Shown piece by piece: positions 29,400-37,715 of a DNA stretch of 64,000 bases (position 1 is its first letter; every line of letters starts with the position of its first letter). Position numbers and translations under genes: made by a program. This DNA is from an uncultured Pseudomonadales bacterium (lineage in GTDB: Bacteria; Patescibacteriota; Microgenomatia; UBA1400; PJMF01). The notes under the pieces are model-generated. The model saw only the letters and a list, made by a program, of their open reading frames with translations. It searched no databases and was not told the origin of the DNA. The stretch is taken from assembly GCA_964457085.1 (NCBI GenBank), contig CAYWDM010000006.1, positions 4,302-68,301 of the forward strand. The letters are read 5' to 3'.

Positions 29400-30248
29400 A
29401 TGGCAGAGCAACAGATAACCAGCTTTCCCCAATCAATTACTGCACATCCCGTAGAGGTATACCGGGAGATTGTGCATCCTCAAATTAGTCGCGTTACAGG
29501 ATCTCGAATTTATACACCAGGACCAATCACAAGTGGCTGGGCATTCAATCTCACTAGGGAGATGGCAGACGTTATCGCACTTAATCGAGAGTTTGCAACA
29601 AAATTTGTAGGCAATGTACTACTTAATAAGCAAAGACCAGTCATCGCACAACTACCAAATCTCACCATTCCACTTGACCAAACTCACATCACCCTACCTC
29701 ATGCACTTGGAGCTTGTGATTTTCCTCGGAATGGTAGTAGTGAAACTAAACGATGGGGCGAATTTAATTATTACGTTGTCTGGATGATGACGATGATGGG
29801 ACTTGAACCTGGTTTGGCAGGTGCCTTTTCTATAGCACTTGAAAAAGATGTTGATGTAAATATCGTCAATGATCGACATGGCATCAGAACCACACGAGTA
29901 GCTGAAGTGCAAAAAGTCTTCCATAACGCGGTGCGTTTTATGTCAGAACATAGAAAAGCAACTAGTCCTGCCACCGCCATCATTGCTCTACCTGAACCAG
30001 CACAAGATCACCATGAAGTCTCGGTTGGCACTGAGTTCGAAGCTCAAAGTGCTACAGCGTTTGGAATTCCATTAGCACAATTTGCAGTCAATGCGCAAAA
30101 TGTGATTGAGGCGAAAAGCGATCCTGATCCAGTCTGGGACGGACCAGTCGCTAGTTGGATGCTTTCTCAACTAGCTAATGCACCAGCTCAGGCTGAGTCA
30201 GATCAACTGGTCGATGTGGTGGCATATCGTCAAATGCAACCATGGTAA
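29400..30248 (+). CDS. hypothetical protein (282 aa)
   Basis: No recognisable motif. Lies between FkbM methyltransferase and LCP genes. Confidence 0.35.
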   Translation: MAEQQITSFPQSITAHPVEVYREIVHPQISRVTGSRIYTPGPITSGWAFNLTREMADVIALNREFATKFVGNVLLNKQRPVIAQLPNLTIPLDQTHITLPHALGACDFPRNGSSETKRWGEFNYYVVWMMTMMGLEPGLAGAFSIALEKDVDVNIVNDRHGIRTTRVAEVQKVFHNAVRFMSEHRKATSPATAIIALPEPAQDHHEVSVGTEFEAQSATAFGIPLAQFAVNAQNVIEAKSDPDPVWDGPVASWMLSQLANAPAQAESDQLVDVVAYRQMQPW

Positions 30249-30258
30249 ACTAAACTCT

Positions 30259-31419
30259 ATGTCCAGGCGAATTATTATTGCTGTAGTTGTCGGTCTCATT
30301 TTGGCCATTACTGCGATTATAACGATCATCTTAACTGTACCTCAAATAAAAAATTGGCTTGAACAAAGCGTCCTTTTTATCTCAAGCACACCAAAAATTC
30401 CAGAAGTTAACTTGCCTGAACCAACCCCAACTCCTGATCCATTGGCACCGATCACCGTTGCTTTACTTGGCTATGGTGGTGGCGGACATGAAGGTGGCAA
30501 ACTGACTGACTCAATCATTGTCGCCAAAATTCAGCCAAAAGATTCGATAGTTACCCTAATAAGTATCCCAAGAGACCTGTGGATAGATTTGCCGATTTCA
30601 CAAGATCAACTGAAGCCCTTTAAGATCAATGCAGCCTATGCGATCGGTAGCGACACCAAACAGTATCTATCTCGACCTACTGAGTTTCAGGGTCAACATG
30701 GTGGTGGTAATTTGGCCAAGAAATCCCTTGAACAAGTTGTGGGACTGCCAATTAATTATTACATTGCGGTTAGTTTTTCAAATTTTCAATCAAGTGTGGC
30801 AGCCCTTGGTGGAGTTGACGTAGAGGTACCATTTAGTTTTAGTGATGAGTTTTACCCAGTTGAGGGCAAAGAAAAAGAAGCCTGCGGTCGTACTGATGAA
30901 GATATCGCCGCACTAACTGCCACCATGTCTGGTTATAAACTTGAGCAGCAATTCCCCTGCCGGTACGAGACCATAACGTACGCAAAAGGTCAACAGCATA
31001 TGGACGCTGAGACCGCATTAAAATTTGTGAGATCTAGGCACTCTGGTTCAAATGGTTCTGATTTTGGACGCAGTCTCAGACAACAAGCATTTATAAAAGC
31101 GGCAAAACAAAAAATCCTGTCATTTAGCTTCATTCCCAAATTGCTACCGTTTGTTGAAAAAAATCTCAAAGGCATCGCAACTGATATTGATATTGAGTTA
31201 ATTTCAAAGTTACTCACCACCTATCAAAACCCTGGAGATTTTAAAATGCAATCGATTTCATTGTCAGACCAAAATGTGCTTAAAGCTGGTAGAAGTAGTG
31301 ATGGACAGTATATTTTATTGCCAAAAGATGAAGCTCAAAGTTGGCAAAGTGTGATCGAATTTATTGAAAAAAGTGAAATTCAACTAGCAACTAGTTCATC
31401 AGGTATACTAACACCATGA
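30259..31419 (+). CDS. LytR-CpsA-Psr (LCP) family cell-envelope glycopolymer transferase
   Basis: TM anchor, then ITVALLGYGGGGHEGGKLTDSIIVAKIQPKDSIVTLISIPRDLWIDLP, the LCP core. Start set at ATG 30259 (MSRRIII). Confidence 0.8.
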   Translation: MSRRIIIAVVVGLILAITAIITIILTVPQIKNWLEQSVLFISSTPKIPEVNLPEPTPTPDPLAPITVALLGYGGGGHEGGKLTDSIIVAKIQPKDSIVTLISIPRDLWIDLPISQDQLKPFKINAAYAIGSDTKQYLSRPTEFQGQHGGGNLAKKSLEQVVGLPINYYIAVSFSNFQSSVAALGGVDVEVPFSFSDEFYPVEGKEKEACGRTDEDIAALTATMSGYKLEQQFPCRYETITYAKGQQHMDAETALKFVRSRHSGSNGSDFGRSLRQQAFIKAAKQKILSFSFIPKLLPFVEKNLKGIATDIDIELISKLLTTYQNPGDFKMQSISLSDQNVLKAGRSSDGQYILLPKDEAQSWQSVIEFIEKSEIQLATSSSGILTP

Positions 31420-32081
31420 AATCGACGACTGCTACCGACGAGCAGAACTGCATCGAGCAGTTCTTCAGTAACTACAAAGCATATCGTTACAAACGAAACT
31501 TTATACTCATTAAACCTGATGAGGTTTTTGACCAAATTTATTACATTAAATCTGGTTTCATTAAACAAACCACTTTTTCCAAAATTGGTGAGGAATTCAC
31601 AGTTAATATATATAAACCAGGATCTTTCTTTGCCATTTCGTTAGCGATGCACAATAAGGTGAGCAACTACACTTTTGAAACCATGACAGAAGCTGAGTTG
31701 ATCAAAGCCCCAGTAAGCGAAATTTTAAAATTAATCAACTCAGAACCAACACTTGCCAGAGACCTGCTGTTTAGAATCACCTCTGGTTTAAATAGTATGG
31801 TTGGCAGAATGGAAAGCTTGGTGTTTGGATCGGCACAACAAAAAGTGGCCGCTGCGGTATTGCAAAATGCCCGCAGGTTTGGCAAAAAAACTGGCCAGAG
31901 TATTGTGATTTCATTGCCACTAACTCACCAACAGTTAGCCTCGCTCACTGGTTTGACACGAGAGACAGTTAGTCTTGAAATGGCAAAGTTTAAAAAAGCT
32001 GCAGTACTCGATTACAAAGGGAAAACAATTACCATCTTCAATTACAACACATTGAGAGACCTTTCACCTGGAAGCATTTAG
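31416..32081 (+). CDS. Crp/Fnr-family transcriptional regulator
   Basis: cNMP-binding beta-roll plus C-terminal HTH QQLASLTGLTRETVSLEMAKFKK. Confidence 0.75.
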   Translation: MKSTTATDEQNCIEQFFSNYKAYRYKRNFILIKPDEVFDQIYYIKSGFIKQTTFSKIGEEFTVNIYKPGSFFAISLAMHNKVSNYTFETMTEAELIKAPVSEILKLINSEPTLARDLLFRITSGLNSMVGRMESLVFGSAQQKVAAAVLQNARRFGKKTGQSIVISLPLTHQQLASLTGLTRETVSLEMAKFKKAAVLDYKGKTITIFNYNTLRDLSPGSI

Positions 32082-32159: not shown

Positions 32160-32504
32160 TTATTTTCGTGCAGCTGCGAATACGACTGCTGAGCTGAGTG
32201 TTAACAACATTCCTGCAAATAACAGTACTTGTGAATCAACACCAGTATCAACAACCTTATGCATTGGAACAACTCTGCCATCGCGGTACACTACTGCACG
32301 ATCAATGACGGCTTTTTGGTTCTGTTCTTGAGTACCTTTTGCACGACAGTTGACTGCTTGGCCATATGAGCCAACTTCACAAACCACTTCCAGTTCTTGT
32401 TTCTGATTTTGCTCAACTGTGGTAGCTGCTGACACAACACTAGTGAATCGAGTAAAGACGATTCCTGCGAGTATTACAGCCAAAAAAAGTTTCATTGTTT
32501 TCAT
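32160..32504 (-). CDS. small secreted protein with C-terminal TM plus basic tail
   Basis: Signal peptide, Cys pair, and C-terminus VDTGVDSQVLLFAGMLLTLSSAVVFAAARK. Confidence 0.4.
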   Translation of the reverse strand: MKTMKLFLAVILAGIVFTRFTSVVSAATTVEQNQKQELEVVCEVGSYGQAVNCRAKGTQEQNQKAVIDRAVVYRDGRVVPMHKVVDTGVDSQVLLFAGMLLTLSSAVVFAAARK

Positions 32505-32737: not shown

Positions 32738-33976
32738 TTAATAGTTCACATGGAGATAATAGGTGGAGACAGGCTCGTCTTTATGCTCAACTTTGACGTA
32801 TCTTAAGTAGCCACCACCACATTTGATACTACCCCGGTACATTGCACCAGCCTTTACTGCCTTAACTGAAACGTTTGAACCAGTTTTGCTCAACATATCT
32901 ATCCCAGTATGAGGTTGACCACCATAAGCCCTTTTTACTCGTGCGTAATAAGACATACCATATCCCTGCGTAATTCTAGCTGGGTCGTTAAGGGGCCATT
33001 CCCAGCCACCTCCGAAGCCAAAACTACCATCTGGATCATTATTCCAAACAATATCTGCACCTCGTAAATAATCTGCTGGATTATGATTTACCCCATTTTT
33101 TACTACTTCGAAGTGAAGGTGGGTGCCAGTAGAACAAGCTGATGGTCCCACGATAATTGAGGCAATCTGGTCGCCAGCACCTACATCCTTCACCTTGGAC
33201 TCGTCACCCTTTCCAGCCAAGATGGACTGAATAGCCTCAAGTTCGCTGAGAGTCTTGGCAAGTTCTTTTTGGAACCTAGCTTCGTTATTTTGTGTTTCAG
33301 TCAATAAAAACTGTTGTTCTTTTTTTTGTCTTTGTTGCTGTGATTGTTGCTTAACTAGCTTAGCTTTTTTTTCAGCTAGCTGTTGTTGCTTCTTTTCTTT
33401 GAGTTGTTTTTGTTCGTCAAAAACCAAACGTCTCGATTCAGTCATCTGCATCGTTTGTGCAGTTTGATGTTGAGTAATTGAAAAATACTTTAATCGTTCC
33501 ACCAGATCTGTGAAACTATCGGAGAGCACAAATGAAAACTCAGATACTTGACGACTATGTTTGTACTGAGCTCTAATACGCTCGATTAAGACACTAGTCA
33601 TTCGATCAAGCGACATACTGAGCCCATTAATGACATCAGTGAGCTGATTAACCTCATCCTCCAAGCTTTGAATTTCCTCGAGAGTTTGATCAATCTGAAG
33701 TTGTTGCAACTTAATTTGACCATTTAGGATACTGATAATATTCTTTAAAGAGTTAGCACTTGATTGAGCCTCTCTAATACTTTCCTCCCAACAGGATTGT
33801 TTTTTCTTGTTGCAGTCCAAATTATCGGTAGATGATTGGGTACTTTTGTTACAGGTAATTTCCTCGCAGTTCATGACCGCAAGTGTTTTTGTAGGCGATA
33901 CAATCTGAGCACCGAAAAAGACTAGAGAGATAACCCCTGTTAAAAGCCAACGATTGAAGCGAAAAATTACCATCAT
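32738..33976 (-). CDS. EnvC-like murein hydrolase activator / M23 peptidase with N-terminal coiled coil
   Basis: Signal/TM, long Q/K/E coiled coil, then M23 motifs in the order STGTHLHFE, HTGIDM, YYLHV (permuted relative to LytM). Immediately upstream of ftsX and ftsE. Confidence 0.7.
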   Translation of the reverse strand: MMVIFRFNRWLLTGVISLVFFGAQIVSPTKTLAVMNCEEITCNKSTQSSTDNLDCNKKKQSCWEESIREAQSSANSLKNIISILNGQIKLQQLQIDQTLEEIQSLEDEVNQLTDVINGLSMSLDRMTSVLIERIRAQYKHSRQVSEFSFVLSDSFTDLVERLKYFSITQHQTAQTMQMTESRRLVFDEQKQLKEKKQQQLAEKKAKLVKQQSQQQRQKKEQQFLLTETQNNEARFQKELAKTLSELEAIQSILAGKGDESKVKDVGAGDQIASIIVGPSACSTGTHLHFEVVKNGVNHNPADYLRGADIVWNNDPDGSFGFGGGWEWPLNDPARITQGYGMSYYARVKRAYGGQPHTGIDMLSKTGSNVSVKAVKAGAMYRGSIKCGGGYLRYVKVEHKDEPVSTYYLHVNY

Positions 33977-33979
33977 GTG

Positions 33980-34849
33980 TTACCTACGGATCATTCGTCT
34001 AACCGCAACTAAACTTGCAAAAAATCCGAGCAGCCAACCAACGACAACGCCAACACCTGCCTGACTCGCCAAAAACCTCCAGTCAATTGGCAGAGAAATG
34101 ACATCCCCTAAAAAGCCTTTAAGCCAGGGAGTGAGATATAACAGAACACCGTACATCAATCCAAATCCAATTAATGATCCAAAAACGCCATAAATAATAC
34201 CCTCGTTCACAAAGGGGGAAATGATATACCAATTGGTAGCTCCAATAATCTTCATAATATTTATGGCATTTTTCTTTGAAACCACCTTCATGCCAATCAA
34301 TATGACTATGGTTAAAAATGAGGTTAATGCCAAAATTCCAACTACAAAAACACCGACTAATCTCAACGAATTAGTCCAGCGTGACAGAGACGACACTACA
34401 TCATCTTGGAAAACTACTTCCTCGATAGAATTTATTGATTCCAGATCCTTTTTTATTGAGGGCAGGGCATCAATCGACTTTGCAGAAACCTCTAAACTAG
34501 CTGGCAAAATGTCAGAAGTCACCAACTCAAGCAATAATGGGTTGTTCTGATTATCTTTTTGATACAAGCCAAGTGCGTCTTTTTTAGAGACCACAGTCAC
34601 CGTGTCTACATATTGTTTAGCTTTAATATCTGCCACCGCTAAATCGACATCATTGTCGGTTGATTGTAGTCTGAAAAAAGCAATCACTTGAGGTCTTGAT
34701 TCAAAAAACCTCAATATATTTTCAGCTCCAAGTAAGGTGATTGCAAAAGTATGTGCCACAAAAAAAGTAATAGAAATCAACATGATTGCCAACATGCTCT
34801 GATATGGCGATCGCCTTATGTTGACTAGACTTGAATTAATTGCACTCAT
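33980..34849 (-). CDS. ftsX: cell-division ABC transporter permease FtsX
   Basis: Four TM helices with a large periplasmic loop, between ftsE and the M23 gene. 4-nt start/stop overlap with ftsE. Confidence 0.75.
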   Translation of the reverse strand: MSAINSSLVNIRRSPYQSMLAIMLISITFFVAHTFAITLLGAENILRFFESRPQVIAFFRLQSTDNDVDLAVADIKAKQYVDTVTVVSKKDALGLYQKDNQNNPLLLELVTSDILPASLEVSAKSIDALPSIKKDLESINSIEEVVFQDDVVSSLSRWTNSLRLVGVFVVGILALTSFLTIVILIGMKVVSKKNAINIMKIIGATNWYIISPFVNEGIIYGVFGSLIGFGLMYGVLLYLTPWLKGFLGDVISLPIDWRFLASQAGVGVVVGWLLGFFASLVAVRRMIRR

Positions 34850-35829
34850 GACTTCGTTTCGCTTGTATGCTTACTTTTTTTGGTTATTTCTTCTGGTTTT
34901 GTTTTTTTTGATTTATGTGACTTGTCTGCTGCAAGCTTTTTATTTTCTGTTGCCGAGTGACTTGATTTGTGATGGTGTATCGAGATTTCCACAGCATCAT
35001 CATCAAGATCTTCAACCTCAGTAACCAAATCATCGGACTGCTCATTTGGTAAATTCTCGACCTGAATCTGTGCAGCTTCTTCCTTGTCTGTGTCATCAGG
35101 GTTTGATGCTGCAGACTTGGCATTCTTATCAGTTAGCTGTAACTCAGTTACCTGACTGGCTGCTTTTGGATGACTATCATAGTCTAACTTACCCTTATGT
35201 AGACTTATACGACGCTCACTAGAAAGCAACGCCAATACCTCATTGTCATGCGTTGCGAGTAATAGGGTAGTGCCTAGTCGATTGATTTGACGTAGCAGTC
35301 TGGCAATACTCAAACTGGTTTCTGGGTCTAGATTTCCGGTTGGCTCATCTGCAAAAATTATCCCTGGACCAGTAGCTAAAGCTCTGGCAATACTCACCCG
35401 CTGTGCTTCACCGCCAGATAACTGACTGGGAAACAGCATAGCTTTTTCCGTCAGACCAACTAATTTCAGTAAATCAGTGACGCGTGATTCGGTCTCTGCC
35501 TGACTTTTGCCTACGATTGAAAGTGGCAATGCGATATTTTCCCAAACATTTAACTCTGGCAACAATTTGTAATCCTGAAAAACGACACCAATACGGCGAC
35601 GATGATGTGCAATTGCCCCGCCTCTGACTCGAGTCAGCGGCTCCCCATCGAATAGTATCTCTCCACTCGTGGGTTCGTACTCCTTGATCAATAGCCGCAT
35701 CAATGATGTCTTACCACTGCCTGACGGACCAGTGATTAATACCAATTCACCTTTATCAATCTGAAAACTGACCTCGCTCAGAGCCTCAGTCTCGCCAAAC
35801 TTTCTGGTAACATTAGTGAAAGTAATCAT
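34846..35829 (-). CDS. ftsE: cell-division ABC ATPase FtsE with C-terminal extension of about 100 aa
   Basis: Walker A GPSGSGKTS, ABC signature LSGGEAQRVSIARA, Walker B and H-loop. Tail rich in D/E/K/S/H. Confidence 0.8.
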   Translation of the reverse strand: MITFTNVTRKFGETEALSEVSFQIDKGELVLITGPSGSGKTSLMRLLIKEYEPTSGEILFDGEPLTRVRGGAIAHHRRRIGVVFQDYKLLPELNVWENIALPLSIVGKSQAETESRVTDLLKLVGLTEKAMLFPSQLSGGEAQRVSIARALATGPGIIFADEPTGNLDPETSLSIARLLRQINRLGTTLLLATHDNEVLALLSSERRISLHKGKLDYDSHPKAASQVTELQLTDKNAKSAASNPDDTDKEEAAQIQVENLPNEQSDDLVTEVEDLDDDAVEISIHHHKSSHSATENKKLAADKSHKSKKTKPEEITKKSKHTSETKS

Positions 35830-35882: not shown

Positions 35883-36545
35883 TTACTCTTCGGTTGCGGG
35901 TACTTTAGCTTCTGGATTTACCACTTCAATTCTACCAACATCCATTAACCAACCTGCTTTTTGTGCCTTAAAGGTTTCTCCCCAAACTTTAACTTGCATA
36001 CCTGTAAATTTCGAGAGATCGGTGACCGATGATGTCAGCACCACGGTTTGATTGACGCCACCCTCACGTAGTAGTTTGTGTGAACCCTCACCACCAATAC
36101 CACCGTCTTCCAGATATCCCTCAGCACTATCTTTGAATGTCGAGGCGTCTTGCATACCAAAAACATCTCCTGCCTTGACTGCACCACTAGCAACTTGCTG
36201 AATAGGTGTCGGGTTGCTTGAACCACTAATTAAACTACCACCATTTTTTGATTTCAATCGAAAACCGCCGTATCCAGTAGCTGTACCAGCAATCAGAGCA
36301 ACAACAACTAATAAGATAATTGGCATTAACATCGGTTTTTTCATAGGAGACTTTACTGCTGTAAATACTTGAGCTTGAGATGACTGCTGTGGCATTTGTG
36401 CACTGTCAGCATCACTAACTGCATCACGATTCTCGCCGATTGAGTTTACTGAGTCAACTGGTGTTTGGCCATCTGACTGCTCTGCAACTTGAGCCTGGGG
36501 AACGGACTCAATTATCAATGAATCATCCAAGGTAATTTTCTGCAT
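35883..36545 (-). CDS. hypothetical membrane-anchored protein
   Basis: Acidic N-terminus, one TM (MLMPIILLVVVALIAGTA), Gly-rich C-terminal domain. Confidence 0.4.
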   Translation of the reverse strand: MQKITLDDSLIIESVPQAQVAEQSDGQTPVDSVNSIGENRDAVSDADSAQMPQQSSQAQVFTAVKSPMKKPMLMPIILLVVVALIAGTATGYGGFRLKSKNGGSLISGSSNPTPIQQVASGAVKAGDVFGMQDASTFKDSAEGYLEDGGIGGEGSHKLLREGGVNQTVVLTSSVTDLSKFTGMQVKVWGETFKAQKAGWLMDVGRIEVVNPEAKVPATEE

Positions 36546-36599: not shown

Positions 36600-37715
36600 T
36601 TAGAGTTTTTTTGTCAATTTAAGTCTAATTTCAGCCATGATGAAAGCATCCAAATCACCATCGAGTACTCCAGTGGTATCAGAGGTCTCGACTTGGGTTC
36701 GAGTGTCTTTCACCAATTGATAGGGATGTAATACATAATTGCGTATCTGAGTGCCCCAACTGGCATGTTGATAGGTACCTTTTTCTTTGGCTAAAACCGC
36801 TTCTTGTTTTTCTTCTTCAAGAATTGCTAATTTTGCCCGCAAAATTTGGTAAGCTTGTTCTTTATTTTGTGTCTGACTACGCTCTCCCCTGCATTTCACC
36901 ACAATTCCAGTTGGAATGTGTGTCAGCTCCACTGCAGTGTTAACTTTGTTCACATTCTGACCGCCTGCTCCACCAGCTCTAGTAAAATGCCAACTTAAAT
37001 CGGCGTCTTTCACTTCTAATACTGCCTGATCCTCAAGCAGGGGCAAGACTTCAACTAGTGCAAATGAGGTTTGTCGCAAGCTGTCAGCGTTAAAGGGGCT
37101 CAGTCGCACTAAGCGATGGGTACCCGATTCACCGCGGAGATAACCATACGCATATGGTGCTTTCACTTCATAACTAGCCTCTTTAATTCCAGCGTCTTCA
37201 CCTCGAGATTCAGAGAGCAACTCGAATTTCCAACCCTTGCGCTCAAAATACCTAACAAACATTCGTCGCAACATATCTGCCCAGTCCATTGCTTCAGTTC
37301 CACCCTGACCAGAGTGAATTGAGAAGATCACTCCTGAGCGATCGTAGGGACCAGAGAGATATCTCTTTAACTGTAGTGAGTCTGCAATTGTTTGCAGTGA
37401 CTTGAGGCATTGATGATATTCAACTAGATCCGTCTCTTGAGCGGTTTCATCCGTAGAATTCAGCGACAAGAGTTCTTGCCATGACTTAACATCTTCGATC
37501 AGTTGGGTAAGGGTTTTTATTTCAGCAATGTCTCCCTCAATACTTGCAGCCTGGGTCACAATCTGCTGTGCATCGGCTCGACTCCAAAAACCTTCTAAAT
37601 TAAGCTGTGATTGTAATTGAGAAAGCTTGTCTTGTAATTCAACTGGTTTACTATCAGCCACCAACTGTGTTGCTTTTTCGAGTAATTCAGTGATTGTTTC
37701 GCTAGTCCAATGCAT
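36600..37715 (-). CDS. prfB: peptide chain release factor 2
   Basis: SPF tripeptide (RLSPFNAD) and GGQ motif ([12 protein letters not shown]). Single continuous ORF with no programmed frameshift. Confidence 0.85.

Follow-up and report, generated by a model that had tools for sequence, protein, structure and literature searches.

A circularly permuted M23 peptidase domain in a probable FtsEX partner protein of Microgenomates

The question raised by the locus

What kind of protein is encoded by a gene that adjoins ftsX and carries the motifs of an M23 (LytM-type) peptidase in rearranged order? The question is posed by a 64,000-nucleotide stretch of contig CAYWDM010000006.1 (assembly GCA_964457085.1; hereafter the window), which is deposited as an uncultured Pseudomonadales bacterium and placed by GTDB within the Patescibacteriota (Microgenomatia; UBA1400; PJMF01). 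The gene in question lies on its minus strand. An earlier inspection of the letters and their translated open reading frames (ORFs), referred to here as the sequence-only reading, had described its product as an EnvC-like partner of FtsEX, encoded immediately upstream of ftsX-ftsE, in which all zinc ligands and catalytic histidines are present and the motif order is permuted: STGTHLHFE comes first, followed by WEWPLNDPARITQGYG...GQPHTGIDM, with YYLHVNY at the end. It had named a homolog survey, an AlphaFold model and a Foldseek search as checks, and mis-assigned motifs, a frameshift or an assembly join at the junction as ways in which the order could be spurious. The analysis presented here indicates that the M23 domain is circularly permuted at the sequence level and that the protein is probably an FtsEX-controlled peptidase. 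The gene and its parts are as follows:

32738..33976, minus strand: whole gene, encoding a 412-residue secreted coiled-coil protein with a circularly permuted M23 domain (from the ORF, Pfam and a full-length AlphaFold model)
33878..33976, minus strand: hydrophobic N-terminus, residues 1-33, read from the sequence as a probable signal peptide or anchor
33293..33832, minus strand: antiparallel coiled-coil hairpin, helices 49-72 and 77-151 paired with 155-228, the presumed FtsX-binding module (from DSSP of the AlphaFold model and Foldseek)
33218..33283, minus strand: third helix, residues 232-253, after the T228/E232 junction motif and leading straight into the permuted domain (from DSSP of the AlphaFold model)
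33059..33205, minus strand: M23 C-part, placed first, residues 258-306, a beta-hairpin and CSTGTHLHFE with C281, catalytic H286 and zinc ligand H288 (from Pfam and the canonical-order profile)
33002..33058, minus strand: new linker, residues 307-325, between the ancestral C-terminus and the ancestral N-terminus, with near-invariant G323 (from the alignment)
32741..33001, minus strand: M23 N-part, placed last, residues 326-412, with WP...ITQGYG, the zinc ligands of H356-T-G-I-D360, C386 and YYLH409VNY before the stop codon (from the canonical-order profile and PDB alignments)

Evidence for a circularly permuted domain

From its N-terminus, the protein consists of a hydrophobic segment and about 190 helix-forming residues, followed by ...VGAGDQIASIIVGPSAC281STGTH286LH288FEVV...NPADYL, then ADIVWNNDPDGSFGFGGG, then WEWPLNDPARITQGYG...GQPH356TGID360M...C386GGGYLRYVKVEH...STYYLH409VNY and the stop codon. 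All M23 motifs are present in this string, with the HxxxD motif (two zinc ligands) found as H356-T-G-I-D360, the HxH motif (a catalytic histidine and the third zinc ligand) as H286-L-H288, and the second catalytic histidine, that of the YxHL strand, in Y407-L-H409. H409 is three residues from the C-terminus.

The whole protein scores 39.2 bits against Pfam PF01551, above the Pfam cut-off of 28.7, yet its native order gives no colinear match to the full domain; instead, the match falls into two swapped stretches, with residues 263-300 aligning to profile positions 61-96 of 96. A score over the cut-off that is reached through two swapped stretches marks the native protein as an M23 homolog with altered connectivity. 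The swap recurs in a PDB sequence search, where residues 38-91 of 9gy1 align to query residues 352-410 and residues 101-131 to query residues 264-296. It also recurs with a hidden Markov model (HMM) of the canonical order, whose positions 84-131 correspond to residues 259-306 and whose positions 1-83 correspond to residues 327-413 (coordinates of the stop-to-stop ORF, offset by +1 from the protein numbering). The permuted motif order proposed by the sequence-only reading is borne out by all three alignments, and the HMM coordinates rule out a mis-assignment of the motifs.

Colinearity is restored when the segments are exchanged. A re-ordered (de-permuted) test sequence, assembled in silico from residues 326-412 followed by 258-306, gives one continuous match to PF01551 positions 2-96 of 96 (E 1.5e-13) and is colinear with 16 solved M23 chains, lysostaphin and LytM included. 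A re-ordered profile of 27 family members matches 41 distinct M23 sequences of the PDB over essentially the whole domain (best E 1.2e-17), examples being lysostaphin 4qp5 (residues 17-138 of 140) and LytM 2b0p (residues 22-133). The native-order profile, in contrast, matches the same chains over the N-terminal half only or the C-terminal part only. At the level of sequence, the M23 domain is circularly permuted. The new termini fall in the loop that normally follows the YxHL strand, such that the chain starts in the post-YxHL loop, passes the hairpin and then the HxH strand on its way to the ancestral C-terminus, crosses the linker of ~19 residues, and continues through WP...ITQGYG...HxxxD to the YxHL histidine. 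We infer that the two swapped segments would fold into one ordinary M23 domain.

Distribution and conservation of the permuted order

Relatives of the protein are encoded at 402 loci in a scan of GTDB covering one genome per GTDB species, and the locus counts given here and below refer to the best 80 of these 402. A single ORF (median length 403 amino acids) encodes HxH, then HxGxD, then YxH no more than eight residues from the stop codon at 79 of the 80 loci. Searching for homologs with the domain as query gave 51 proteins that share this order and whose source labels read Microgenomates or Patescibacteria, and the C-terminally complete members of this set end at YYLHVNY or within a few residues of it. 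A HMMER scan of 1.84 billion cluster representatives (50% identity) yielded 104 matches below E 1e-30, most of which are 380-420 amino acids long and have one colinear C-terminal match to the whole permuted profile. Of the approximately 275 proteins collected, 187 have a complete permuted domain with YxH within eight residues of the end. The survey returned the order first read in the window.

Among the best 80 loci, the record titles that name a lineage refer to Patescibacteria or to Microgenomates-type metagenome-assembled genomes (Woesebacteria, Pacebacteria, Collierbacteria and Shapirobacteria). Many other titles are generic or evidently unreliable, such as 'uncultured Pseudomonadales', 'Limisphaerales', 'Vitreimonas' and 'Bathyarchaeia' (loci L002, L006, L007, L009, L048 and others); these look like placeholder or wrong taxonomy, or contaminated bins.

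Conservation is concentrated on the active site. Across 78 full-length members, whose columns average 28% identity, no variation is seen at G284, H286, H288, H356, D360, G377 and H409, a set that includes exactly the M23 zinc ligands and catalytic histidines; the complement of residues noted in the single protein by the sequence-only reading is therefore a property of all 78. The linker varies in length from 2 to 27 residues (usually 18-26) and has a near-invariant glycine before the WxWP motif. All 13 of the homologs sampled have a similar hydrophobic N-terminal segment. Separately, a four-cysteine segment (C37, C42, C55 and C62; 33791-33868, minus strand) follows the signal peptide in the window protein. 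At least four cysteines occur within the first 90 residues in 13 of the 78 homologs, and the motif was rejected as a family-wide feature, being confined to a subclade.

A cysteine pair shared by the swapped segments

Two further cysteines are located within the permuted domain: C281 (33134-33136, minus strand), in a site five or six residues before the HxH motif, and C386 (32819-32821, minus strand), in the hairpin of the N-part. Their occurrence is strongly correlated: 161 domains have both cysteines, 16 have neither and 10 have a single one (Fisher p = 6e-15). The two positions co-vary as well, -5 occurring with -20 or -21 and -6 with -17 or -18. None of the canonical-order M23 domains in the same collection has both cysteines. 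From this pattern, C281 and C386 probably form a disulfide that staples the two swapped segments together, which is plausible for a secreted protein; a shared metal site is less likely.

Structural models

Structures were modelled for residues 230-412, with AlphaFold2 and the family alignment, and for the full-length protein. The domain model is confident (predicted local distance difference test, pLDDT, 93.0; predicted template modelling score, pTM, 0.89) and forms one compact beta-rich unit with strands at each motif, namely 287-293 (HLH), 359-361 (D360) and 403-408 leading to H409. The full-length model (pLDDT 89.7, pTM 0.78) consists, in order, of helices 49-72 and 77-151, a turn, helix 155-228, a three-residue break at T228/E232, helix 232-253 and the domain. 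Residues L225, T228, E232, L239 and E245, around the junction of coil and helix, are near-invariant.

The top Foldseek match of the full-length model in the PDB is EnvC of the Vibrio cholerae FtsE/FtsX/EnvC complex (8tzl_E; E 3e-4, prob 1.00), followed by the N-terminal coil of RipA, PcsB (4cgk), RipC in its complex with FtsEX (8idc_E) and Escherichia coli EnvC (6tpi_A). The only high-probability structure match of the domain model, among the matches listed, is BFVD entry A0A510E7V3_3, a viral protein fragment of 1191 residues (prob 0.98, TMq 0.45, 164 columns, E 0.019), which could be a phage-borne permuted or tandem M23 protein.

Origin of the permutation and other architectures

Tandem duplication of an M23 domain, with subsequent loss of the outer halves, is the most likely source of the permutation, since natural tandem M23 proteins span the permuted profile across the junction of domain 1 and domain 2. 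Four of the collected proteins (P0169, P0183, P0196 and P0168) have two or three canonical M23 domains in tandem, and tandem M23 proteins match the permuted profile in one stretch comprising the C-part of one domain, the inter-domain linker and the N-part of the domain after it. They are a plausible precursor of the textbook kind for a permutation that proceeds by duplication and loss of the ends.

The permuted module has also spread to proteins of other architecture that lie outside the FtsEX context: it is found at the C-terminus of the 1256-residue protein P0144 (locus L082, 6001-9771), which has no other Pfam domain, and inside the 894-residue protein P0161, together with an Exo_endo_phos (endonuclease/exonuclease/phosphatase) domain.

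Genomic association with FtsEX

The permuted M23 gene is the last of the ftsEX gene string, directly downstream of ftsE-ftsX in transcription order. The other members of the string are:

36600-37715, minus strand: prfB, in the same-strand gene string
35883-36545, minus strand: 220-residue membrane protein with no family assigned, the member of the string between prfB and ftsE
34846..35829, minus strand: ftsE, 327 residues, ATP-binding cassette (ABC) ATPase (Pfam PF00005, ABC_tran, E 1.8e-37)
33980..34849, minus strand: ftsX, 289 residues, with an FtsX extracellular domain and a permease domain (Pfam PF18075 and PF02687)

The ftsE/ftsX junction is a 4-nucleotide overlap (ATGA), and the start codon of the M23 gene lies 3 nucleotides after the ftsX stop codon. 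This spacing suggests translational coupling of ftsX and the M23 gene, which would putatively be co-transcribed with ftsE-ftsX. It is also the only detectable M23-type gene in the window when all window ORFs are compared with the canonical-order HMM. The string of prfB, small membrane protein, ftsE, ftsX and permuted M23 gene is retained at ~70 of the 80 GTDB loci, most of the exceptions being loci on truncated contigs, and the same gene order is found in two divergent members, P0195 (~29% identical) and P0137. P0195 additionally has a weak Pfam match to CC_PcsB.

Two features are those of an EnvC-type protein: a coiled-coil hairpin (helices 77-151 and 155-228) is N-terminal to a catalytic-type domain, and the gene adjoins ftsX. 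Helix 232-253 is placed in the AlphaFold model where EnvC has its restraining-arm helix and, by analogy with EnvC, may act as a restraining arm (PMC7668044). The degenerate LytM domain of EnvC, devoid of zinc ligands, has no counterpart here, all ligands being invariant. The sequence-only reading is supported, with small corrections. Its genomic tie to ftsEX is upheld by the synteny and its adjacency by the 3-nucleotide gap, with the direction reversed, the gene being downstream rather than upstream. Its label EnvC-like is apt for the coiled-coil architecture, for which 8tzl_E is the best match, but not for the catalytic domain, for which EnvC is among the weakest PDB matches.

Proposed mechanism and alternatives

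Taken together with the mechanisms described for FtsEX in other bacteria (PMC7668044; PMC11627006), these data make it likely that the protein is the extracytoplasmic partner of FtsEX, an active M23 endopeptidase with a permuted domain that is controlled by this complex. By analogy, the hairpin would dock on two FtsX extracellular domains (PMC7668044; PMC11627006), and ATP binding by FtsE would compress these domains. The resulting change would travel along the coil and lift autoinhibition of the C-terminal domain, and the freed permuted M23 domain would cut peptidoglycan peptides directly at the septum. The protein is predicted to cut peptidoglycan itself because its zinc site is under strong purifying selection and because the nearest solved relatives of the re-ordered profile are active peptidases (9gy1, 3slu, TagE, lysostaphin and LytM). 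In function it would be nearer to the direct hydrolases PcsB, CwlO and RipC than to the catalytically dead EnvC, though with M23 chemistry. Patescibacteria have a cell without an outer membrane, which a direct-hydrolase role would fit.

How the permutation might bear on this control is a matter of speculation. In the permuted protein the coil joins the domain at the hairpin that precedes the HxH strand, and regulation might be altered by this new entry point and by the near-terminal catalytic histidine. In a stronger version, which we regard as rather unlikely, the permutation would constitute a new form of coupling between FtsEX and catalysis: coil movement would assemble or distort a mechanically gated zinc site, as opposed to moving a restraining arm, with the conserved disulfide as a pivot. 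The idea of a gated site follows from the fusion of the last coil helix to the hairpin before the HxH strand and from the location of H409 three residues from a free C-terminus.

Several observations weigh against the reading of the protein as a permuted M23 peptidase partnered with FtsEX. With the domain model alone, Foldseek searches of the PDB and of BFVD recovered no M23 structure among the 50 matches listed in either, leaving this proposed check without a positive result, and not even the 87-residue N-part was recovered as M23 among the matches listed. Reduced sensitivity is expected in this case because Foldseek aligns chains in sequence order and separation along the sequence enters into its 3Di states, and the null result is treated as uninformative for or against an M23 fold. 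The M23 fold attributed to the model is that indicated by sequence homology and by the order of its secondary structure. No C-N-C intermediate of the duplication was found among the coiled-coil members (200 proteins searched), and four of the 80 loci, with enough flank, have no ftsEX nearby.

An alternative function is that of a regulatory LytM factor like EnvC, NlpD or DipM, whose non-cutting domain would activate an amidase or other autolysin under FtsEX control. FtsEX-EnvC-amidase is the best-studied paradigm (PMC11627006; PMC7668044), the overall architecture and best structural match of the protein are those of EnvC, and catalysis here is predicted from sequence. We nevertheless judge this alternative unlikely, since EnvC and DipM have lost their zinc ligands (PMC11627006), whereas all five catalytic residues are invariant here despite the low mean identity of the 78 sequences. 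Moreover, the closest solved relatives of the domain are active peptidases and EnvC ranks among the weakest matches, and the score of the NCBIfam EnvC equivalog, NF008644, is 16.1 bits, far below its cut-off of 270.

The active site might instead form only on oligomerization, with the swapped segments of different chains complementing each other in trans, within dimers or oligomers formed by domain swapping. Formation of swapped dimers is possible for circular permutants and half-domains, PcsB is dimeric in crystals (PMC11627006), and the shortest of the linkers might be too short for intramolecular closure. Against this, the AlphaFold monomer is a confident, compact single domain, the co-varying cysteine pair is most simply explained as intramolecular, and EnvC binds FtsX as a monomer with 1:2 stoichiometry (PMC7668044), so that we consider a trans arrangement very improbable.

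It is less probable still that the gene encodes a general autolysin that merely lies beside ftsEX and is free of its control. The four loci at which the gene is away from ftsEX, and the unrelated architectures of P0144 and P0161 that contain the permuted module, point in this direction. They are countered by a synteny that is kept down to ~30% identity, by the gene spacing, with the translational coupling that it suggests, and by the coiled-coil hairpin, which is of the type used by every known FtsEX partner. An artefactual origin through a frameshift, an assembly join or mis-assigned motifs can be dismissed for practical purposes, because the junction is in frame within a single uninterrupted ORF that is followed 3' of its stop codon by AT-rich intergenic DNA with no coding continuation, the same order recurs at 79 of 80 loci from independent assemblies and in hundreds of metagenome proteins, and the HMM coordinates confirm the motif assignment.

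Neighbouring genes

The 220-residue protein encoded at 35883-36545 has one predicted membrane helix and no Pfam, NCBIfam or PDB-sequence match. Its position is kept in most of the 80 GTDB loci and also in the divergent loci L081 and L084, and it may be an unrecognised divisome or FtsEX-associated component. FtsE has a charged, low-complexity C-terminal tail (residues ~225-327; 34849-35157, minus strand) that extends ~100 residues past the ABC domain; this tail is variable, as tblastn matches in related loci mostly end at about 220-265 residues. A 114-residue ORF downstream of the M23 gene (32160-32504, minus strand) encodes a signal peptide and, at the C-terminus, a hydrophobic stretch that ends in ARK. 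This C-terminus is reminiscent of a sortase sorting signal, and homologs of the ORF are found 3' of the M23 gene in ~20 related loci. Two neighbours are encoded on the other strand:

30178-31419, plus strand: LCP-family (LytR_cpsA_psr) cell-wall polymer ligase
31416-32081, plus strand: Crp-family regulator

Novelty and significance

Database labels of the relatives include 'hypothetical', 'murein DD-endopeptidase MepM / activator NlpD' and 'peptidoglycan DD-metalloendopeptidase family protein', and none of the NCBIfam models reaches its cut-off on the permuted protein. No description of a permuted M23, LytM or lysostaphin domain was found in full-text literature searches, which covered few subscription-journal papers, so that an earlier description is possible. 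In the literature searched, the term 'circularly permuted' was applied to NlpC/P60 only (PMC6403190), and nothing was found on the partner protein of FtsEX in Patescibacteria or the candidate phyla radiation. What is new is the connectivity of a familiar domain within a familiar type of system, a variant that is conserved throughout a large uncultured lineage; the system as such is not of a new kind.

Few peptidoglycan hydrolases and antimicrobial enzymes have been studied as much as those of the M23/LytM type, such as lysostaphin. That a permutant exists in nature and is widely conserved implies that the fold tolerates termini right after the YxHL strand, which is useful for enzyme engineering. 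The case also bears on annotation, given that profile searches detect only half of the domain and that sequential structure search did not recognise it as M23 among the matches listed. For Microgenomates, the analysis identifies a probable FtsEX effector that is apparently a direct zinc endopeptidase; a direct M23 partner is not among the types treated in the cited FtsEX literature (EnvC, PcsB, CwlO and RipC). The entry point of the coil differs from that in EnvC, and a comparison of the two could therefore reveal essential features of mechanotransmission by FtsEX.

Comparison with known systems

EnvC of E. coli and V. cholerae (6TPI, 8TZL) resembles the permuted protein in being secreted, in combining an antiparallel coiled-coil hairpin with an additional helix and, at the C-terminus, a LytM/M23-type domain, and in its genetic or physical tie to FtsEX. 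In contrast, the LytM domain of EnvC has the normal order, has lost its zinc ligands and activates amidases (PMC7668044; PMC11627006), while the domain described here is permuted and its catalytic residues are invariant. The restraining arm of EnvC comprises ~50 residues, compared with 22 for the third helix here.

PcsB (Streptococcus pneumoniae), CwlO (Bacillus subtilis) and RipC (Mycobacterium tuberculosis) share a division of labour in which the coil binds FtsX and the C-terminal domain cuts directly, an arrangement that the permuted protein probably shares. Their hosts lack an outer membrane, and the coils are structurally similar (4cgk, 8idc_E). Their catalytic domains are CHAP or NlpC/P60 cysteine peptidases, whereas that of the permuted protein is an M23 zinc peptidase.

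Canonical-order proteins that combine a coiled coil with M23 are represented by P0272, P0260 and P0262, in which an active M23 domain comes after a PcsB-type coil. P0272 shares 39% identity with the re-ordered domain of the window protein, over 99% of its length, but is of normal order, matching PF01551 at positions 2-96 of 96 in one stretch (119 bits). In proteins of this type the coil enters at the WP...ITS.FG N-terminus and the cysteine pair is absent; the N-terminal motif WP...ITS.YG is common to both groups. The list from a search with the re-ordered profile is headed exclusively by the permuted family, and the first canonical-order matches appear near E 1e-21 to 1e-16; a short coil is present among these in P0260, P0262 and P0272, and others are not coiled-coil proteins. 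P0272 is not adjacent to ftsEX in the locus examined (L086, 4566-5693), where the PcsB-type coil (143 amino acids) and the M23 part (230 amino acids) are called as separate genes 3 nucleotides apart, which may represent a split or frameshifted coil-M23 gene.

LytM, lysostaphin and ShyA (2B0P, 4QPB, 6UE4) have a homologous domain with the same HxxxD, YxHL and HxH residues, and are matched over the whole domain by the re-ordered profile with E-values of ~1e-11 for LytM and lysostaphin and 1e-8 for ShyA. The permuted domain differs from these in its altered connectivity, in having termini beside the active-site strands, in its family-specific cysteine pair and in its fusion to a coiled coil. A precedent for swapped catalytic residues in a peptidoglycan-hydrolase superfamily is provided by the circularly permuted NlpC/P60 proteins (YaeF/poxvirus G6R, LRAT-like; PMC6403190), which differ in fold and chemistry (papain-like, with a Cys-His triad).

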